DNA from: an uncultured virus (IMG/VR IMGVR_UViG_3300024358_000470)
Taxonomy: Duplodnaviria > Heunggongvirae > Uroviricota > Caudoviricetes
Length of the DNA stretch: 20,000 bases
IMG/VR virus record: IMGVR_UViG_3300024358_000470
Strand: one strand, 5' to 3'
The position numbers were made by a program, and so were the translations under genes. The number at the start of each line of letters is the position of its first letter. The first letter of the stretch is position 1. This document shows, in pieces, positions 1,392 through 17,316 of the stretch. The notes beneath the pieces were generated by a model, which did not search any database, was not told where the DNA came from, and was given only the letters and a program-made list of their open reading frames with translations.

Positions 1392-2354
1392 ATGAAACTC
1401 AAAAACTTTATTTCTATTAGTCTTGCTCTTGCTCCTGCTGCTGCATTTGCTGGGACTACTTTGAACGGTGCAGGTGCCACCTTCCCAGCACCTCTTTATC
1501 AACGATGGTTCCAAGATTATGCACGAACTTCTGGGAGTAGGGTTAATTATCAGTCCGTTGGTTCTGGTGCTGGTGTTCGTCAATTCCTTGCGGGAACGGT
1601 TGATTTCGCAGCAAGTGACGAACCCATCAAACCCGCAGAAGCGGCAAAAGTGAAGCGTGGTGTTGTCCAGATCCCTATGATTGGTGGAACGATTGCTGTT
1701 GCTTACAACAATCCTAGTTGCACTCTGAAACTCACTCAAAAGCAAACTGTTGATATTTTTGCTGGTCGTATTAAAGACTGGAAGCAAGTCGGATGTGCTG
1801 CTGGTCCGATGAAAGTTGTTCATCGTTCTGATGGTTCTGGAACTACTTTTGCATTCACCAACTCTTTGGAAGCATTTGGTGGTTGGACTTATGGTGTAGG
1901 TAAGTCTATTAATTGGCCTACTGGTGTTGGTTCAAAAGGTAACGAAGGTGTTTCTGGTACTATCAAAAACACTCCTGGTGCTATTGGTTATGTGAATACT
2001 GGATTTGTTCGTGCCAACAAACTTAAAGCAGCAGTTATTCAAAACAAGGCAGGTAAGTTTGTCGGTCCTTCCGCTGTGACTGGTGCTGCTGCTCTGAATA
2101 GCATTACTCTGGATGCAAACCTTGCTGGCGAAAATCCCAATCCCTCTGGAACAAATGCATATCCAATTTCTACTCTGACTTGGATCCTTGCATATAAGAA
2201 AGGTAATGGTGCTAAGACTGATGATATCCGTGCTGCTCTGAACTATGCTTTGAGCACAAAAGCACAGATGATTGCTGATGATTTGGGTTATGTTCCTCTT
2301 GCAGGTTCGGTTCTCAACAAATCACGCATTGCTGTTGGGCGTATTGGTCAGTAA
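1392..2354 (+). CDS. pstS: Phosphate ABC transporter substrate-binding protein PstS
   Basis: Signal peptide, GAGATFPAPLY, YQSVGSGAG, DFAASD, HRSDGSGTT, YPISTLTW. Confidence 0.97.
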   Translation: MKLKNFISISLALAPAAAFAGTTLNGAGATFPAPLYQRWFQDYARTSGSRVNYQSVGSGAGVRQFLAGTVDFAASDEPIKPAEAAKVKRGVVQIPMIGGTIAVAYNNPSCTLKLTQKQTVDIFAGRIKDWKQVGCAAGPMKVVHRSDGSGTTFAFTNSLEAFGGWTYGVGKSINWPTGVGSKGNEGVSGTIKNTPGAIGYVNTGFVRANKLKAAVIQNKAGKFVGPSAVTGAAALNSITLDANLAGENPNPSGTNAYPISTLTWILAYKKGNGAKTDDIRAALNYALSTKAQMIADDLGYVPLAGSVLNKSRIAVGRIGQ

Positions 2355-2385
2355 TTCCTAACAAAACTAGGTATAAATGACTACG

Positions 2386-2412
2386 AGGGGTGCTTGACAC
2401 CCCTTTATTTTT
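2386..2412 (+). terminator. Terminator-like hairpin after pstS, overlapping the next -35 box
   Basis: AGGGGTG-CTTGA-CACCCCT then a T-rich tract. Confidence 0.55.
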
Positions 2413-2422
2413 GCTATATAAT
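2394..2422 (+). promoter_or_regulatory. Consensus sigma70-type promoter for the hli-petF cluster
   Basis: TTGACA (2394)-17 nt-TATAAT (2417). Confidence 0.8.
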
Positions 2423-2450
2423 TGTGTAACAATTCGTAATAAAACGAAAA

Positions 2451-2660
2451 ATGACTGTAACAAAAAACGAGTTTGGGCAAATGAATATGTTTGCCAAAGA
2501 ACCCGCGATGTATATGACCAAGGAAGACCTTGAGCGTTATGGCATCGAACCCTATGCAGAAAAAGCGGAGAAAATGAATGGACGCTGGGCTATGGTCGGC
2601 ATTGTTGCTGGCGCTATTTCTTATGCTCTCACTGGGCACCTCTTCTTTGGAGTAGTTTGA
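2451..2660 (+). CDS. hli: High-light-inducible protein
   Basis: AEKMNGRWAMVG chlorophyll-binding motif with one TM helix; N-terminal EFGQMNMFAKEP typical of long HLIPs. Confidence 0.93.
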   Translation: MTVTKNEFGQMNMFAKEPAMYMTKEDLERYGIEPYAEKAEKMNGRWAMVGIVAGAISYALTGHLFFGVV

Positions 2661-2669
2661 GACTTGACA

Positions 2670-2756
2670 ATGACTTCAACTATCTTTACAATAACATCAG
2701 TTGCCTTTTTTGTTTTACTGGCAGCATCCGTTGAAAAAATTTGCGAGACTTACTAA
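2670..2756 (+). CDS. Small single-TM hypothetical protein (28 aa, [28 protein letters not shown])
   Basis: Read by hand; fills the hli-petF gap, and its TAA overlaps the petF ATG (TAATG). Confidence 0.55.
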
Positions 2757-3049
2757 TGACCGTTTTTAATGTCACTCTCCAATCCCCTGATGGCACCGAA
2801 ACTACTATCAAATGTCCTGATGACCAGTACATCCTTGAAGCAGCAGAAGAGGCAGGTGTTGACCTCCCTTCATCGTGTAAGGCAGGCGCTTGCTCTGCCT
2901 GTGCTGGCAAACTCATTTCTGGCACCGTTGACAACGAAGAACAATCGTTCCTTGATGATGATCAACAAGCAGAAGGTTGGGTTCTCACTTGCGTTGCTTA
3001 TCCCACAAGTGATTGTGTAATTCTTACTGAACAGGAAGAGAATCTGTGA
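2756..3049 (+). CDS. petF: Plant-type [2Fe-2S] ferredoxin
   Basis: [13 protein letters not shown]...[11 protein letters not shown] at 2756 preferred over TTG at 2741. Confidence 0.96.
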
Positions 3050-3324
3050 GCACTGCTGGTATGCTAGGGCAGTTCGCAATTGCCCTTCAAGAACTTGGGT
3101 GGAATGCTGATGATGAAATCTCGGTGGAGATTGGAGGAGTAGCAGTAACAGGAACTGCTACCAGTCCAAATGCAAATCCAAAATGGGCAAAACCATTTGG
3201 AACTGTATCCTACCAAAACGATGCTTTCATCGTAATTAAAAACAAATCGAGGAACCCAGTTGTTCCTTCACAACCAAATCCTGAACTTAAACAACACCAC
3301 CTTTATCAAGGAGAAAACAAATGA
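3046..3324 (+). CDS. Hypothetical protein (92 aa)
   Basis: ORF overlaps the petF stop (GTGA) and the next ATG (ATGA); no recognisable motif. Confidence 0.7.
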
Positions 3325-3440
3325 AAAATCTTTTTACTGAAAAAGCTGAGCGTATTAATGGTTGGTTTGCAATGATTGGTTTTGTTGCAGCCGCTGGTTC
3401 TTATCTTACTACCGGTCAAATTATCCCCGGTGTGTTTTGA
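3321..3440 (+). CDS. hli: High-light-inducible protein (39 aa), absent from the ORF track
   Basis: [39 protein letters not shown]; AExxNGxxAMIGF and TGQIIPG motifs; AGGAG RBS. Confidence 0.93.
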   Translation: MKNLFTEKAERINGWFAMIGFVAAAGSYLTTGQIIPGVF

Positions 3441-3451
3441 TAGAGGTCAAA

Positions 3452-3979
3452 ATGCGTAAAGAGCAATATCAAGTTCCACAAGTACAATTTGTATTCCGTG
3501 AGAATAGTGAGTTTGTAAATCGTACATCCGCAGAACTATTCAATGGAAAGCGTGTGGTCATTTTTAGCCTGCCTGGTGCTTTCACTCCTACTTGCAGTGC
3601 CTATCAGCTACCTGGATTCGAAGAGAAATACGACGACTTTATTGGTAGTGGCATCGACGCTATTTACTGCATCTCTGTTAATGATGGGTTTGTGATGAAT
3701 GCCTGGGCACAAGACCAGAACATTGAGAAAGTAAAACTCATTCCAGATGGAAATGCATATTTCACACGCTCTATGGGAATGCTTGTTAGTAAGTCCAACC
3801 TTGGTTTCGGTGATCGCTCTTGGCGTTATGCTGCAGTCGTGGATAACGGAATCATCGAGAAACTGTTTGTTGAACCAGGACAGCGCGATAATGCCCCTGA
3901 AGATCCTTATGTTGAGACTACTCCAGAAAATGTTTTTGAATATGTAAAATCTACGGTTCGAGAAACTGTTACTGCCTGA
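3452..3979 (+). CDS. Peroxiredoxin (Prx5/type II, redoxin family)
   Basis: LPGAFTPTCS, SVNDGFVMNAW, DGN..FT..MGM, RSWRYA; start moved to ATG 3452 with GAGG RBS. Confidence 0.93.
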   Translation: MRKEQYQVPQVQFVFRENSEFVNRTSAELFNGKRVVIFSLPGAFTPTCSAYQLPGFEEKYDDFIGSGIDAIYCISVNDGFVMNAWAQDQNIEKVKLIPDGNAYFTRSMGMLVSKSNLGFGDRSWRYAAVVDNGIIEKLFVEPGQRDNAPEDPYVETTPENVFEYVKSTVRETVTA

Positions 3980-12494: not shown

Positions 12495-13574
12495 ATGACT
12501 GCTACAATTTCACGTCAACGACAATCGAATACTTGGGAACAATTCTGCAACTGGGTCACATCAACCGATAATCGTCTTTATGTCGGTTGGTTCGGAGTCC
12601 TCATGATTCCTTGCCTGCTTGCTGCTACGACTTGTTTCATCATCGCATTCATCGGTGCTCCCCCAGTGGACATTGATGGTATCCGTGAACCCGTTGCTGG
12701 TTCACTCATGTACGGAAACAACATCATCTCTGGTGCTGTTATTCCTTCGTCCAACGCGATTGGACTGCACTTTTATCCCATCTGGGAAGCTGCTTCGCTT
12801 GATGAGTGGCTTTACAACGGTGGTCCTTTCCAACTTGTAGTGTTCCACTTCCTTATCGGTATCTACGCTTACATGGGTCGTGAATGGGAACTTTCATACC
12901 GTCTTGGTATGCGTCCTTGGATCTGTGTTGCTTACTCTGCACCTGTGGCTGCTGCTTCTGCTGTGTTCCTGGTGTATCCTTTCGGTCAAGGTTCTTTCTC
13001 TGATGCGATGCCTCTGGGTATCTCTGGTACGTTCAACTATATGCTTGTGTTCCAGGCAGAGCACAACATCCTGATGCACCCCTTCCACATGCTTGGTGTG
13101 GCTGGTGTCTTTGGAGGTTCTCTGTTCAGTGCTATGCACGGTTCTCTGGTTACTTCCTCACTGGTTCGTGAAACCACTGAGAACGAGTCACAGAACTATG
13201 GTTACAAGTTTGGTCAAGAAGAAGAGACCTATAACATCGTTGCTGCTCACGGTTATTTCGGACGCCTTATTTTCCAATATGCTTCCTTTAATAACTCACG
13301 TTCGCTGCACTTCTTCCTTGCTGCATGGCCTGTAGTTGGTATCTGGTTCACTGCTCTTGGTGTTAGCACCATGGCATTCAACCTCAACGGTTTCAACTTT
13401 AACCAGTCCATCATTGATTCACAGGGTCGTGTCCTCAACACTTGGGCAGATGTTCTGAACCGTGCTGGACTCGGGCTCGAGGTGATGCACGAAAGGAATG
13501 CACACAATTTCCCTCTGGATCTTGCTGCTGCTAGCAACACTCCTGTTGCCCTTACTGCACCCGCAATCGGTTGA
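12495..13574 (+). CDS. psbA: Photosystem II D1 protein, intronless, Glu130 (high-light-type) form
   Basis: [50 protein letters not shown]. Confidence 0.99.
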
Positions 13575-13599
13575 GTTTTATAAAAACTGAATAAGAATG

Positions 13600-13627
13600 A
13601 AGAGACCTTTACAGGTCTCTTTTTTTA
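13600..13627 (+). terminator. psbA terminator
   Basis: AAGAGACCT-TTAC-AGGTCTCTT plus T-run. Confidence 0.85.
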
Positions 13628-13671
13628 TGGTATTATTCATAAATAGTTCCATACCAAACTTCCATACCATA

Positions 13672-14034
13672 ATGAAAACTTGTAGTAGATGTGGAGAAAC
13701 AAAAGAACTTGATAGTTTCTCTAAAAGAAGTAGTAGACCTTCTGGGGTTCAATCAAAGTGTAAGGATTGTGAACGGGAAGTTCGTAGGCAATATTATAAG
13801 ACTCACGAATATGCTAGACGCAGATTTAAACTTACAGAAGACCAATATAATGACCTAATGAAGAATGAGAACTGCCAAATATGTGATGTGGAACTAACCA
13901 AGAAGTGTATAGACCACTGCCACTCTACAAATAAGGTTCGTGGTGTTCTCTGTAACAACTGCAACACTGCATTAGGTCTTGTAGGAGACAACATCAGCAC
14001 TCTTCAAAAGATGATAGAATACCTAAATAACTAA
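13672..14034 (+). CDS. Free-standing Endo VII-family homing endonuclease, F-CphI-like
   Basis: CSRC..CKDC zinc module, then CQIC...CIDHCHSTNKVRGVLCNNCNTALG (DHCH...RGxLCxxCN); directly downstream of psbA; ATG 13672 follows CATAAATA. Confidence 0.85.
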   Translation: MKTCSRCGETKELDSFSKRSSRPSGVQSKCKDCEREVRRQYYKTHEYARRRFKLTEDQYNDLMKNENCQICDVELTKKCIDHCHSTNKVRGVLCNNCNTALGLVGDNISTLQKMIEYLNN

Positions 14035-14049
14035 AAAGTATTCATAAAA

Positions 14050-14784
14050 ATGGACGCACAAGAACTTCGCAATCTTCAAGAAGCATATATGGAAGTTGTT
14101 GAAAATCAGCAACTGGATGAAATCTCTGATAGAAAAGTCAAAGGAATGTTAAGAAAGAGAGATGCACAAGATGTAGATAGTGGTGGTATAAGTGGTGCTT
14201 GGATGGCAAGACGCCGCGCTCATCAGGCAGCAGCAAGAAGAAATGTAAGAACAGGTTCAAATGTTCGTGTCGATTCTGATTTAGCAAAAGAAGAAGTAGA
14301 TGTTTACGATCTAATTCTTTCACACTTACTTGATGAAGGATATGCTGATACTCAACAAGCAGCAGAAGCAATTATGGTGAATATGAGTGAAGAGTGGAGA
14401 GACAATATTATAGAAAGAGAGGATAGTCCTTATGAGAAAGCATCTGATGCTGCATTAGATAAAAGATATGGATATGGTAGAGCATCTGGTGATAAGCGTT
14501 CTTTCGGTAGAGCAGCAAATCGTTCATCTGCTGCCGCTGCCCTTCGTGCTATTAGAAGAGGTGAAAGAAGTGGTAGTGGAACTTCAAGAGAAGCAGGTGC
14601 TGATGCAGTTCATCAGGGTTGGGCAAGAACTGCTAAAACAAGTACAGACCAAACACCAGAAAAGAAACAAAGAAGAGCAAAACTTGCTAATACATCATAT
14701 TCAAATCTTCCCGATGATGAAAAGGAAAAGGATAGAGTATCTTTTGATGCTGTAAGAGCAACTTATAATAGAAACAAAAGATAA
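14050..14784 (+). CDS. Hypothetical protein, probably virion-internal, with a RyR-domain-like C-terminus
   Basis: LQEAYMEV and YDLILSHLLDEGYADT..AEAIMVNMSEEW acidic modules; AVHQGWA...YSNLPDDEKEKDR; CTAAATA upstream. Confidence 0.75.
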   Translation: MDAQELRNLQEAYMEVVENQQLDEISDRKVKGMLRKRDAQDVDSGGISGAWMARRRAHQAAARRNVRTGSNVRVDSDLAKEEVDVYDLILSHLLDEGYADTQQAAEAIMVNMSEEWRDNIIEREDSPYEKASDAALDKRYGYGRASGDKRSFGRAANRSSAAAALRAIRRGERSGSGTSREAGADAVHQGWARTAKTSTDQTPEKKQRRAKLANTSYSNLPDDEKEKDRVSFDAVRATYNRNKR

Positions 14785-14785
14785 T

Positions 14786-14812
14786 AAAAAAGGAGGGATA
14801 AAACCCTCCTTT
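14786..14812. terminator. Hairpin between convergent genes, probably a bidirectional terminator
   Basis: AAAGGAGGG-ATAAAA-CCCTCCTTT preceded by an A-run. Confidence 0.75.
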
Positions 14813-14816
14813 AACT

Positions 14817-15020
14817 TTATTTGGAACTTACAAAATCATTAATGATTTCTGCTTGTTCTAGAACTTGATTAAGTGTTGGAAACTCTGGATAATCCATTGC
14901 TACTTTTTTGTTCTCATCTTCATTCCAACGAACAGCAGTATCATATTCCATGCTAAACTGGTCATTAAGCATATTATATGCTTGCTTAAAGATTTCAAAT
15001 CGAAGTTCATAAGGTGTCAT
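14817..15020 (-). CDS. Hypothetical phage protein (67 aa, MTPYELRFEIFKQAY...)
   Basis: AGGAG RBS upstream of ATG 15020; TTGACT-16 nt-TATAGT promoter at 15090-15063. Confidence 0.75.
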   Translation of the reverse strand: MTPYELRFEIFKQAYNMLNDQFSMEYDTAVRWNEDENKKVAMDYPEFPTLNQVLEQAEIINDFVSSK

Positions 15021-15118
15021 AGATATTCTCCTAATGTGTGTGATGTGTGTTTCCACTAAGAAACTATATCATAAATTATCAAAAAGTCAAGTAATAATAA
15101 AAACCTATCCTCAGTTTT

Positions 15119-15162
15119 CTGAAGCAACTCCTGTTGCTCTCACTGCACCTTCAATTGGTTGA
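15119..15162 (+). pseudogene. psbA: Orphan remnant of a psbA 3' end ([17 protein letters not shown])
   Basis: 31 of 36 nt identical to psbA 13539-13574; no start codon and no upstream psbA sequence. Confidence 0.88.
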
Positions 15163-15187
15163 TAACAACTGAATAACTGATATAATT

Positions 15188-15404: not shown

Positions 15405-16466
15405 ATGACTTCTTCTACACTTTCACAACCTATTCAACAACGAGGATGGTTTGATGTACTCGATGACTGGCTTAAAAGAGACCGTTTCGTTTTTGTTGGC
15501 TGGTCTGGACTTCTTCTTTTTCCCACTGCTTATCTTGCTCTTGGTGGTTGGATTACTGGGACAACTTTCGTCACGAGTTGGTATACTCACGGGCTTGCGA
15601 GTTCCTATCTTGAGGGTGCAAACTTTCTTACTGCAGCAGTTAGTACTCCAGCAGATTCTATGGGTCATTCTCTTCTTCTGCTCTGGGGTCCTGAGGCTCA
15701 AGGGGATATCGTCAGGTGGTTCCAACTTGGGGGACTATGGACTTTTGTGGCGCTCCACGGGGCCTTTAGTCTGATCGGATTTATGCTTCGCCAGTTTGAG
15801 ATCTCACGACTGGTAGGCATCCGTCCTTACAACGCAATTGCATTCTCTGGTCCCATCGCAGTGTTTGTGAGCGTCTTCCTGATGTACCCTCTGGGTCAAT
15901 CCAGTTGGTTCTTTGCACCTTCCTTTGGTGTTGCTGCTATCTTCAGGTTCCTTCTGTTCCTTCAGGGTTTTCACAACTGGACTCTTAACCCATTTCATAT
16001 GATGGGTGTTGCTGGTATACTGGGTGGAGCACTGCTCTGTGCTATTCACGGAGCAACTGTAGAAAACACACTATTTGAAGATAGTGATCAAGCAAATACA
16101 TTCAAGGCATTCGAACCAACACAAGAGGAAGAAACCTATTCAATGGTTACTGCTAACCGTTTCTGGTCGCAAATCTTTGGAATTGCTTTTAGTAACAAGC
16201 GTTGGTTACATTTCTTTATGCTCTTTGTTCCCGTCATGGGTCTCTGGACATCTTCTATCGGGATTATCGGTCTTGCTCTCAATCTTCGTGCTTACGACTT
16301 TGTTAGTCAGGAGATTGAAGCAGCCGTCAATCCGGAATACGAAACTTTCTACACGAAGAATATACTTCTTAACGAAGGGCTTCGTGCTTGGATGGCTCCC
16401 GTAGACCAACCACATGAAAATTTTGTTTTTCCAGAGGAAGTTTTGCCTCGGGGCAACGCACTTTGA
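15405..16466 (+). CDS. psbD: Photosystem II D2 protein
   Basis: [54 protein letters not shown]. Confidence 0.99.
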
Positions 16467-16470
16467 TTTT

Positions 16471-16498
16471 AAAGACCTCATTGTTGGGGTCTTTTTTA
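16471..16498 (+). terminator. psbD terminator
   Basis: AAAGACCTCA-TTGT-TGGGGTCTTT plus T-run. Confidence 0.8.
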
Positions 16499-16526
16499 TT
16501 TACATAAGACCCAAAGTATGATAAAA

Positions 16527-16534
16527 TATAAATA
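16527..16534 (+). promoter_or_regulatory. T4-type late promoter for the endonuclease gene
   Basis: TATAAATA 25 nt upstream of ATG 16560. Confidence 0.75.
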
Positions 16535-16559
16535 ATAATAGATATTCAAAGTTAGGATA

Positions 16560-17129
16560 ATGCCCTTAAATAATAAATCAAAACCTTGTGGTGCTTTGAT
16601 TGGTAAAAAATTTGGAAAACTTACTGTCCTGAAAGAAGAAGTAGTCTTTAAGAGTGGGAAGAATAGAGTTTATTCAACTTGTAAATGTGAATGTGGTGGA
16701 GAAAAAACTTGCGAGAGATATGGTCTTATGAATGGTTCAACTACTAGTTGTGGGTGTGTTAGGAGAGAAACTACTATTGCTTTTAATAAAACTAAAAAGA
16801 AACCAGAAGGTGAATTAAAAAAAGACGATAGAAGATATAGTATGTTTCATAATGCTCAACATAGGGCAAAAAGAAAGGGTATTCCATTTAGTATAACTAT
16901 AGATGATATTATTATTCCAGAAACTTGTCCTTTACTTGGAATACCTCTTGTATCTACTAATGATAAAAGAGATCCAAGAAATCCTAGTTTAGATCAAAAG
17001 GTTCCTGGTAAAGGATATACCCCCGATAATATTTGGGTTATATCTTCAAGAGCGAATGCCCTAAAATGGGACGCATCCCTACAAGAATTAGAACTCCTAG
17101 TAGAAAACCTCAAATGCTTCTCATCTTAG
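16560..17129 (+). CDS. Putative free-standing homing endonuclease (His-Me-finger/HNH-like)
   Basis: GKKFGKLTV..CKCECG..SCGC module typical of phage HNH/AP2 endonucleases; CPLLG..PSLDQKVPGKGYTPDNIWVISSRAN beta-beta-alpha-like core. Confidence 0.75.
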   Translation: MPLNNKSKPCGALIGKKFGKLTVLKEEVVFKSGKNRVYSTCKCECGGEKTCERYGLMNGSTTSCGCVRRETTIAFNKTKKKPEGELKKDDRRYSMFHNAQHRAKRKGIPFSITIDDIIIPETCPLLGIPLVSTNDKRDPRNPSLDQKVPGKGYTPDNIWVISSRANALKWDASLQELELLVENLKCFSS

Positions 17130-17188
17130 TTCTCTTCCAACTTTTTGGAATCCTAATGTTTATATTATCTGTTATGCAGGACTTATGA
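17114..17188 (+). CDS. Possible hydrophobic micro-protein (24 aa, MLLILVLFQLFGILMFILSVMQDL)
   Basis: ATGA coupling to the next ORF. Confidence 0.35.
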   Translation: MLLILVLFQLFGILMFILSVMQDL

Positions 17189-17316
17189 TAACTTCTACAA
17201 CACCATACAAACTCGCAGAAATTATTCGTGATACATGGCCTGGACTTTACAGACCACCAGTAAAGACTTATAATAAATCTTCTATAAATATTCCACAAAA
17301 TTGCAGAAAAAAATGA
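17185..17316 (+). CDS. Small hypothetical protein (43 aa, MITSTTPYKLAEIIRDTWPGLYRPP...)
   Basis: ATGA overlaps at both ends. Confidence 0.5.
   Translation: MITSTTPYKLAEIIRDTWPGLYRPPVKTYNKSSINIPQNCRKK
17283..17290 (+). promoter_or_regulatory. T4-type late promoter
   Basis: TATAAATA upstream of glutaredoxin. Confidence 0.65.

Follow-up and report, generated by a model that had tools for sequence, protein, structure and literature searches.

Near the end of its psbD gene, the virus studied here carries a patch of four amino-acid changes in the photosystem II protein D2. As far as sequence comparisons can tell, this patch is most likely the cleavage-immune form of a homing-endonuclease target, spread by intronless homing in which the recoded target is co-converted with the nuclease gene. 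We call "the window" the whole stretch of 20,000 nucleotides that was analyzed, which is part of a 99-kb virus record (38% complete). The runs holding it are riverine. The gene order is psbA (12495-13574), an Endo VII-type ORF, psbD, an ORF of 189 amino acids, and a glutaredoxin-like gene, a layout that we take to be that of a T4-like cyanophage. The psbD region contains the following features:

15405..16466, + strand: psbD, photosystem II D2, 353 aa, intact, host gene of the cassette (ORF, alignment, TIGR01152)
16317..16340, + strand: the patch, codons 304-311, with R304E, E307V, D308N, and F311Y (sequence, alignment, consensus comparison)
16326..16355, + strand: inferred recognition/cleavage region, codons 307-316, here in a presumed immune form (position of the changes in 51/56 alleles)
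16471..16494, + strand: terminator-like hairpin after psbD (consensus match only)
16499..16527, + strand: sigma-70-like promoter match, 10/12 (weak: 17 such sites against 10.7 by chance)
16527..16534, + strand: presumed T4-type late promoter TATAAATA, 5' of the nuclease gene (spacer counts)
16545..16559, - strand: candidate operator, 15 nt resembling canonical psbD codons 308-312 reversed, between the late promoter and the start codon
16560..17129, + strand: putative free-standing nuclease gene, 189 aa (phrog_3322, fold model, invariant residues)

The four-residue patch is real

The first-pass annotation had described four clustered changes of D2 at 16311-16343, and both the bases and the translation are as it claimed, inside an intact psbD whose product scores 747.7 bits against TIGR01152 (cut-off 600.6). 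Alignment to Synechocystis D2 (6wj6_D) confirms the standard numbering, R304E, E307V, D308N, and F311Y, and shows that E310, E312, T316, and K317 are kept. Relative to the consensus of 34 nuclease-less phage D2 proteins, the window D2 differs at 14 sites (codons 18-352): 10 are in codons 49-227, four are the patch itself, and none is in codons 312-352. The motif had been called near-invariant, and rightly so: codons 307-312 are canonical in 115 of the 120 viral loci anchored on both flanks (93+13+6+2+1), a sample drawn from 5 of the 64 parts of the collection. Within the cyanobacterial phylum, 91 of 301 genomes have the canonical motif and none has R304E.

The same D2 protein is found on 38 contigs from three sources. 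A contig from a DNA run, possibly the window's own source, covers 15707-17266 at a depth of 320 with no deviating letter, and contigs from two RNA runs cover the patch, again with no deviating letter (run coverage was examined in 4 of the 23 listed runs). RNA-run contigs, which may contain DNA, extend over both patch and nuclease. An exact-pattern scan of IMG/VR returned the patch in five loci representing 2 distinct phages: four match the window over the printed part, and one is a different phage. The exact patch also occurs in the metagenome loci L291 and L318, and in L286 with an added A306S. The four patch alleles probably have one origin. No cultured phage with the patch was found, the best match having 79% identity over 81 nt. 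An error of sequencing or assembly, which had been named as a possible refutation, is ruled out by the 38 contigs and by the exact cover in DNA- and RNA-run contigs; the existence of five distinct combinations of patch and nuclease also speaks against an artefact. Nothing was found in favor of this explanation, and we give it next to no credence.

The putative nuclease cassette behind psbD

The cassette consists of the psbD tail, a terminator-like hairpin, a presumed late promoter, and the gene of a putative His-Me (PacI-like) nuclease. The octamer TATAAATA, which we read as a T4-type late promoter, is present in 68 of 70 distinct spacers preceding the nuclease and in 0 of 69 nuclease-less spacers. 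The nuclease gene is optional, being found in 6 of 75 background alleles. Locus L046 represents the empty allele: its canonical psbD runs straight into the glutaredoxin gene, with no nuclease.

The product of the 189-aa ORF has a match to phrog_3322 (endonuclease, E 2e-31) and weaker ones to HNH and Endo VII phage families, while searches of Pfam, NCBIfam, and PDB profiles gave zero matches. The Endo VII profile PF02945 in particular finds no match in 16560-17129, which has only a weaker match to phrog_1035. The nearest ESM Atlas clusters are unnamed or HNH-labelled viral proteins. The structure model (pLDDT 83) has an N-terminal SH3/Tudor-like barrel with Cys motifs and a C-terminal His-Me (beta-beta-alpha) domain that lacks the catalytic His. 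For this C-terminal domain, both fold searches put PacI at the top (Z 6.8, rmsd 3.2 over 87 residues; Foldseek E 0.14), and Hpy99I also matches (Z 5.1), both Z scores being below the tool's caution line of 8. Among 28 relatives from psbD loci, Asp145, Tyr153, Asn157, and Asn166 are invariant, and the residue following D145 is Q, K, or R, never H. The subfamilies are called SLDQ, SLDK, and SLDR, and the window nuclease belongs to SLDQ. In PacI a loop Tyr stands in place of the His, according to the available part of PMC5714182. From the model, we infer that the product of 16560-17129 is a site-specific His-Me nuclease. Within 3 mismatches, the 99-kb record contains no second canonical target besides the patch itself. 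Local RNA structure offered no further feature: a hairpin lock over the ribosome site of the nuclease is unsupported in this window (z 0.9, -0.6, -0.45), and no RNA structure was found within the patch (z 0.85).

The 15 nt at 16545-16559 may be an operator copy of the nuclease target, a lead whose chances of being right we put at about even. When all psbD positions on both strands are compared, the 19 spacers of the window type match best at codon 308. Shuffled spacers matched the psbD 3' region equally well in 0 of 60 cases with 14-mers and 2 of 60 with 12-mers; relative to matches anywhere in psbD, the similarity is only about 1.8 sd up. Variation of this segment among relatives is largely at third positions and at the Phe/Tyr base. 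Of the other spacer types, two match other parts of the psbD tail and two do not; the latter, types D and R342, have no match to the psbD 3' end (16 and 22-33 of 60 shuffles were equally good). In the available text of PMC2988022, I-TevI represses itself by means of a homing-site copy located at its late promoter. The spacers of L171, L203, L546, and L551-L558, and those of type B (e.g. L202), resemble psbD codons 346-351 or 320-324. Which part of the tail they resemble follows the N-terminal type of the nuclease, and they could be operators or insertion relics.

Related genes occur elsewhere. In Synechococcus phage S-SKS1 (L239, NC_020851.1), the gene annotated as D1 at 1867-3522 is psbD (TIGR01152). 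The tail of this psbD is strongly altered, and the gene after it encodes an SLDK-type nuclease of the same family. Loci L174, L182, L186, L195, L197, and L199 have a phrog_314 homing-endonuclease-like gene behind psbD (TIGR01453 below cut-off), and the psbD alleles before it carry E310S/F311Y and further changes. SLDR-type relatives away from psbD (L544-L550, L556) indicate that the family has other insertion sites; by eye, these are near high-light-inducible, phosphate-binding, porin, or glycosyltransferase-like genes.

The psbA gene of the window has a cassette of its own. The block 13575-15176 contains an Endo VII-type ORF at 13597-14034 (PF02945, E 8e-18) and two more ORFs. After that cassette, a relic of the last psbA codons is found at 15121-15162, an 86% repeat of 13539-13574. 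Contigs from three RNA runs lack the psbA-side block and connect 13530 directly with 15120. The block has the appearance of an insertion that supplied psbA with a new tail, the old tail remaining as the relic. Codon 328 of the window D1 (psbA, 12495-13574) is Leu and lies inside the 60-bp substrate of F-CphI, as given in the part of PMC6083498 available (table S3). In a non-random sample, an F-CphI-like gene follows psbA in 10 of 27 alleles with Leu, 1 of 22 with Met, and 2 of 43 with Phe at codon 328, possibly by the same recoding principle as in psbD. Other psbA genes appear to be interrupted by introns, near the HERNAH motif or in mid-gene (L253 1-400; L367, L419; L149).

Association, confinement, and mobility of recoded alleles

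A check on the co-occurrence of patch and endonuclease, suggested in the first-pass annotation, revealed a link in both directions, from motif to nuclease and from nuclease to motif. Starting from the motif, the nuclease adjoins the patch in all five IMG/VR exact-patch loci (2 distinct phages). A full scan of IMG/VR gave 36 loci with a Tyr/Trp-class codon at 311, where the downstream gene belongs to this nuclease family in 26, is the phrog_314 homing-endonuclease-like gene in 6, and is neither in 4. After dereplication, 13 of 19 F311Y/W alleles have the nuclease versus 5 of 73 canonical alleles (P 7e-8), as do 11 of 13 T316S/L alleles (P 1e-8); a nuclease-like gene is absent beside 4/19 and 2/13 of these alleles, respectively. 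Loci with less than 700 nt of flank were dropped from these counts (1 in each motif set, 3/80 in the background). In the reverse direction, the nuclease protein and its alignments served as queries and gathered 103 SLDQ loci with a full psbD tail, corresponding to 56 distinct psbD 3' alleles. Codons 307-316 are altered in 51 of them, in 20 different patterns, and are canonical despite the SLDQ nuclease in five (L303, L309, L322, L323, L341). Codons 307-312, which were fixed by no search anchor, are altered in 35/59 nuclease-linked versus 2/69 nuclease-less alleles (P 5e-13). Because the alleles share ancestry, all these P values overstate independence and are indicative only. The stronger argument lies in how many chemically unrelated patterns occur.

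Two further groups have changes at codon 311. Locus L165 has a psbD with F311Y and no nuclease, and the gene after it is presumably that of a podovirus capsid protein, judging from its appearance. Loci L217-L238 are 22 cellular psbD copies with a Tyr/Trp-class codon 311, mostly divergent paralogues of Leptolyngbyaceae-type genomes. Several of them have a different C-terminal end, and two are from Acaryochloris sp.

The excess of changes is confined to the 3' end of the gene. Measured against the nearest nuclease-less allele (24 SLDQ-linked and 34 nuclease-less full-length alleles), pN over codons 304-316 is 0.118 in SLDQ-linked versus 0.012 in nuclease-less alleles, and over codons 18-290 it is 0.031 versus 0.033, so that the 5' part is not more changed. 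The ratio pN/pS is 0.12, below 1, and thus gives no sign of positive selection, although this simple pairwise count is a weak test. The best 24-nt segment, codons 309-316, picks out 52/57 SLDQ alleles versus 2/69 in the background, when scored by the bases permitted in nuclease-less alleles and with a 57-allele set that includes loci found via the motif. The location depends on the subfamily: 51/56 SLDQ versus 10/23 SLDK/SLDR alleles are changed at 307-316 (P 2e-5), and changes at 334-345 are found in 18/23 SLDK/SLDR and also in 34/56 SLDQ alleles. Many alleles are altered at both places, a pattern that a series of homing events would be expected to produce. Neither indels nor stops were seen in the last 60 codons of the tabulated alleles. 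Third codon positions vary freely among nuclease-less alleles, so an enzyme reading this target could presumably be escaped only via first and second positions.

The patch sits on unrelated psbD backgrounds. The window has 81% identity with L291 over codons 18-290 and 97% over codons 303-313, and the corresponding values for L175 are 82% and 94%. Between L286 and the window, identity is 80-90% in the upstream part of psbD and 97-98% in its final 180 nt. When relatives are ranked on the 5' part of the gene, the closest is L046 (90%), which has a canonical motif and no nuclease. A tree of 76 alleles built on codons 18-290, with rough support, has the nuclease-linked alleles interspersed among the nuclease-less ones. 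An AU test rejects the grouping of the three full-length carriers of the patch in a single clade (p-AU 1e-14); when two other motif groups were tested as clades, one was rejected (p 4e-4) and one was not (p 0.17). Locus L175 combines the patch with T316L and with a nuclease whose N-terminal module is different. Because psbD recombines widely, the tree conflict is no proof that the nuclease moved the patch; the identity steps and the AU test are consistent with co-conversion of flanking DNA, short of proving nuclease-driven transfer. There is no psbD intron in the window, where the gene is one uninterrupted ORF, nor in the aligned nuclease-linked loci, and the two candidates for a protecting intron, L253 and L254, turned out to have an uninterrupted psbD. 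A left-over psbD tail behind the nuclease was not found in the window; other loci, e.g. L072, have one.

We propose the following mechanism. The site-specific His-Me nuclease encoded at 16560-17129 would be produced late in infection. In a cell infected by two phages, it would nick or cut the other phage's canonical psbD in the region of codons 307-316, and repair off the carrier would copy the nuclease gene together with the carrier's psbD 3' end into the recipient, by intronless homing with co-conversion. The enzyme would have to read first and second codon positions, so immunity would need amino-acid changes, and selection on D2 would allow these on peripheral residues, where photosystem II should tolerate them, and not at E312, K317, or N318. 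In the window allele, immunity would come from F311Y and probably from E307V/D308N, and R304E may restore the local charge. The escape from the adjacent endonuclease that had been put forward in the first-pass annotation, with cleavage as its presumed cause, is well supported: motif and nuclease co-occur in both directions, the excess changes are confined to a short stretch close to the 3' end, and the patch is mobile.

The same data can be read in other ways. Repeated cutting, followed by error-prone or recombinational repair near the end of psbD, might leave a scar of tolerated damage that was never selected. Nuclease-linked alleles do show more synonymous divergence at their 3' end as well (pS 0.96 versus 0.73), and many alleles are altered at several sites along codons 307-345, including the 34/56 SLDQ alleles also changed at 334-345. 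This explanation is nevertheless improbable, given that identical multi-base patches recur on unrelated backgrounds, that the tabulated alleles are free of indels and stops in their last 60 codons, and that the position of change tracks the nuclease subfamily. The patch might also have come from a divergent cellular psbD paralogue by recombination, the link to the nuclease reflecting shared ancestry, and cellular paralogues with F311Y, E307V/A/K/Q, or E310S do exist. However, R304E or D308N is found in 0/22 cellular F311Y/W loci, R304E is missing from all 301 genomes mentioned above, and nuclease-linked alleles are scattered over the psbD 5' tree, which leaves this origin very improbable.

A different possibility is that the patch is adaptive, retuning the donor side (PsbO/Ycf48 binding, proton exit) for the benefit of the phage, while the nuclease hitchhikes or helps it spread. 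The contact of the D308 loop with Ycf48 and later PsbO (bioRxiv 10.1101/2022.10.16.512410, in the part available) would fit such a role, as would the abundance of the phage in river samples (depth ~320), the presence of F311Y/W in 22 cellular loci, mostly divergent D2 copies and one of them with E307V, and the fact that R304E and D308N are seen only together. Yet one would then have to account for 20 patterns of unrelated chemistry (307 S/Y/V; 309 A/S/V; 311 Y/W; 316 S/L) beside a single nuclease subfamily, and such changes are nearly absent in nuclease-less phages (2/69). An altered donor side, the other alternative of the first-pass annotation, therefore found little support, all the more as E312 and K317 never change, and we judge it to have only a slight chance of being correct. 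The cleavage-immune target spread by homing remains our preferred reading. It could be part of a larger picture, which we advance as speculation and think rather unlikely as a whole: His-less PacI-like homing nucleases with swappable DNA-binding modules would tile the psbD 3' end, repress themselves via an operator copy of the target, and drive an arms race that would be the main source of amino-acid change in viral D2 on its water-oxidising side. As the canonical target is also present in host psbD (91/301 genomes), these enzymes may cut the host gene too. The version made in infection would then be the recoded phage D2, whose assembly or donor-side behavior would differ measurably.

Consequences for D2 and relation to known systems

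Residues E302, E312, K317, N318, and R326 are unchanged in 59/59 alleles found via the nuclease, and the window keeps a full-length psbD with E312, K317, and N318, as expected of a functional D2. In the available part of bioRxiv 10.1101/2021.01.29.428861, E312 and K317 are placed in the broad channel and K317 mutants have lowered O2 evolution; mutations of E307, D308, E310, and E323 reportedly leave FTIR spectra unaltered. The D308 loop meets Lys93 of Ycf48 and later binds PsbO (bioRxiv 10.1101/2022.10.16.512410, available text). For D2-R304 or F311, no mutant data were found in the literature searched. By simple arithmetic, the net charge of codons 304-308 stays at -1 with the patch. Substitutions R304E and D308N are seen only together, and E307S/E307Y occur without them in 10 alleles. 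R304E may compensate charge, a guess resting on what is probably one origin. As F311Y alone or milder changes seem to suffice elsewhere, R304E and D308N are left unexplained by immunity alone. To judge from its sequence, the variant D2 probably works, perhaps with a slight impairment, and a side effect of the patch on assembly or PsbO binding is possible. An AlphaFold model of the variant D2 had a mean pLDDT of 38 and was set aside.

It appears, then, that a selfish element, and not photosynthesis, reshapes a viral photosystem protein. Unusual sequence features in phage photosystem genes tend to be interpreted as adaptations of photosynthesis; in this case, a selfish nuclease is the better explanation. 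This calls for caution in selection scans and in the use of psbD as a marker gene. Taken together, the presumed immune alleles also chart which residues of the D2 lumenal loop, next to the proton-exit channel, tolerate change in nature: positions 304, 307-311, and 313-316 are changeable, and 302, 312, 317, 318, and 326 are unchanged. Finally, the cassette supplies a testable candidate, a homing endonuclease with a PacI-like histidine-free active site and a predicted target, and the cultured phage S-SKS1, on Synechococcus WH7803, offers a related cassette.

The mechanism itself is already known from T4 MobE and SegF, from F-CphI, and from the WHO elements of yeast. We found no description of a psbD-targeting nuclease or of these D2 variants in the literature searched, which included few subscription papers. 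The sources compared below were available in part. Intronless homing by free-standing endonucleases of T4 involves the pairs SegF/gene 56, SegG/gene 32, and MobE/nrdB (PMC2988022, PMC2790892). As in T4 SegF, SegG, and MobE, an optional nuclease gene is found here beside a conserved gene, the presumed target is hundreds of bases from the insertion, carriers differ at target codons, and there is a late promoter and possibly an I-TevI-like operator. For MobE, nrdB codon 42 is Lys versus a Lys/Arg polymorphism at the nick site, which is proposed to protect the carrier (PMC2790892). Unlike in T4, the target is the photosystem II gene psbD, the nuclease resembles a His-less PacI rather than GIY-YIG or classical HNH enzymes, and many radical changes (20 patterns) stand against one conservative codon; nuclease activity is, in our case, predicted from sequence. 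In cyanophage S-PM2, F-CphI is likewise a free-standing nuclease just 3' of a photosystem II core gene and aimed at its 3' end, but it targets psbA, contains an Endo VII motif, and leaves the protection of its carrier to a group I intron (PMC6083498). The psbD described here is intronless and apparently protected by recoding, and its nuclease has no Endonuclease_7 match.

PacI and Hpy99I (PDB 3m7k/3ldy and 3fc3) are the best fold matches of the C-terminal domain, and the absence of His together with an invariant Tyr recalls the description of PacI, whose loop Tyr may have its equivalent in Y153 (PMC5714182, where PacI-like His-Me nucleases form group 20). The similarity to these enzymes is limited to 17-20% identity and Z below 8, with no PDB sequence match, and the context is that of a homing element, not of a restriction system. 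Judged by analogy, the WHO elements of the yeast Torulaspora are the closest system in logic: their nuclease gene, 3' of an essential gene, moves with its own 3' part of that gene, and there is amino-acid diversity at the target and an apparent arms race among several nucleases (bioRxiv 10.64898/2026.08.13.744650). They differ in being LAGLIDADG enzymes of a eukaryote, and positive selection and allele-specific cleavage have been shown for WHO elements (same source). New here are the inferred target region, the possible operator copy, and the cultured phage S-SKS1 with its related cassette.
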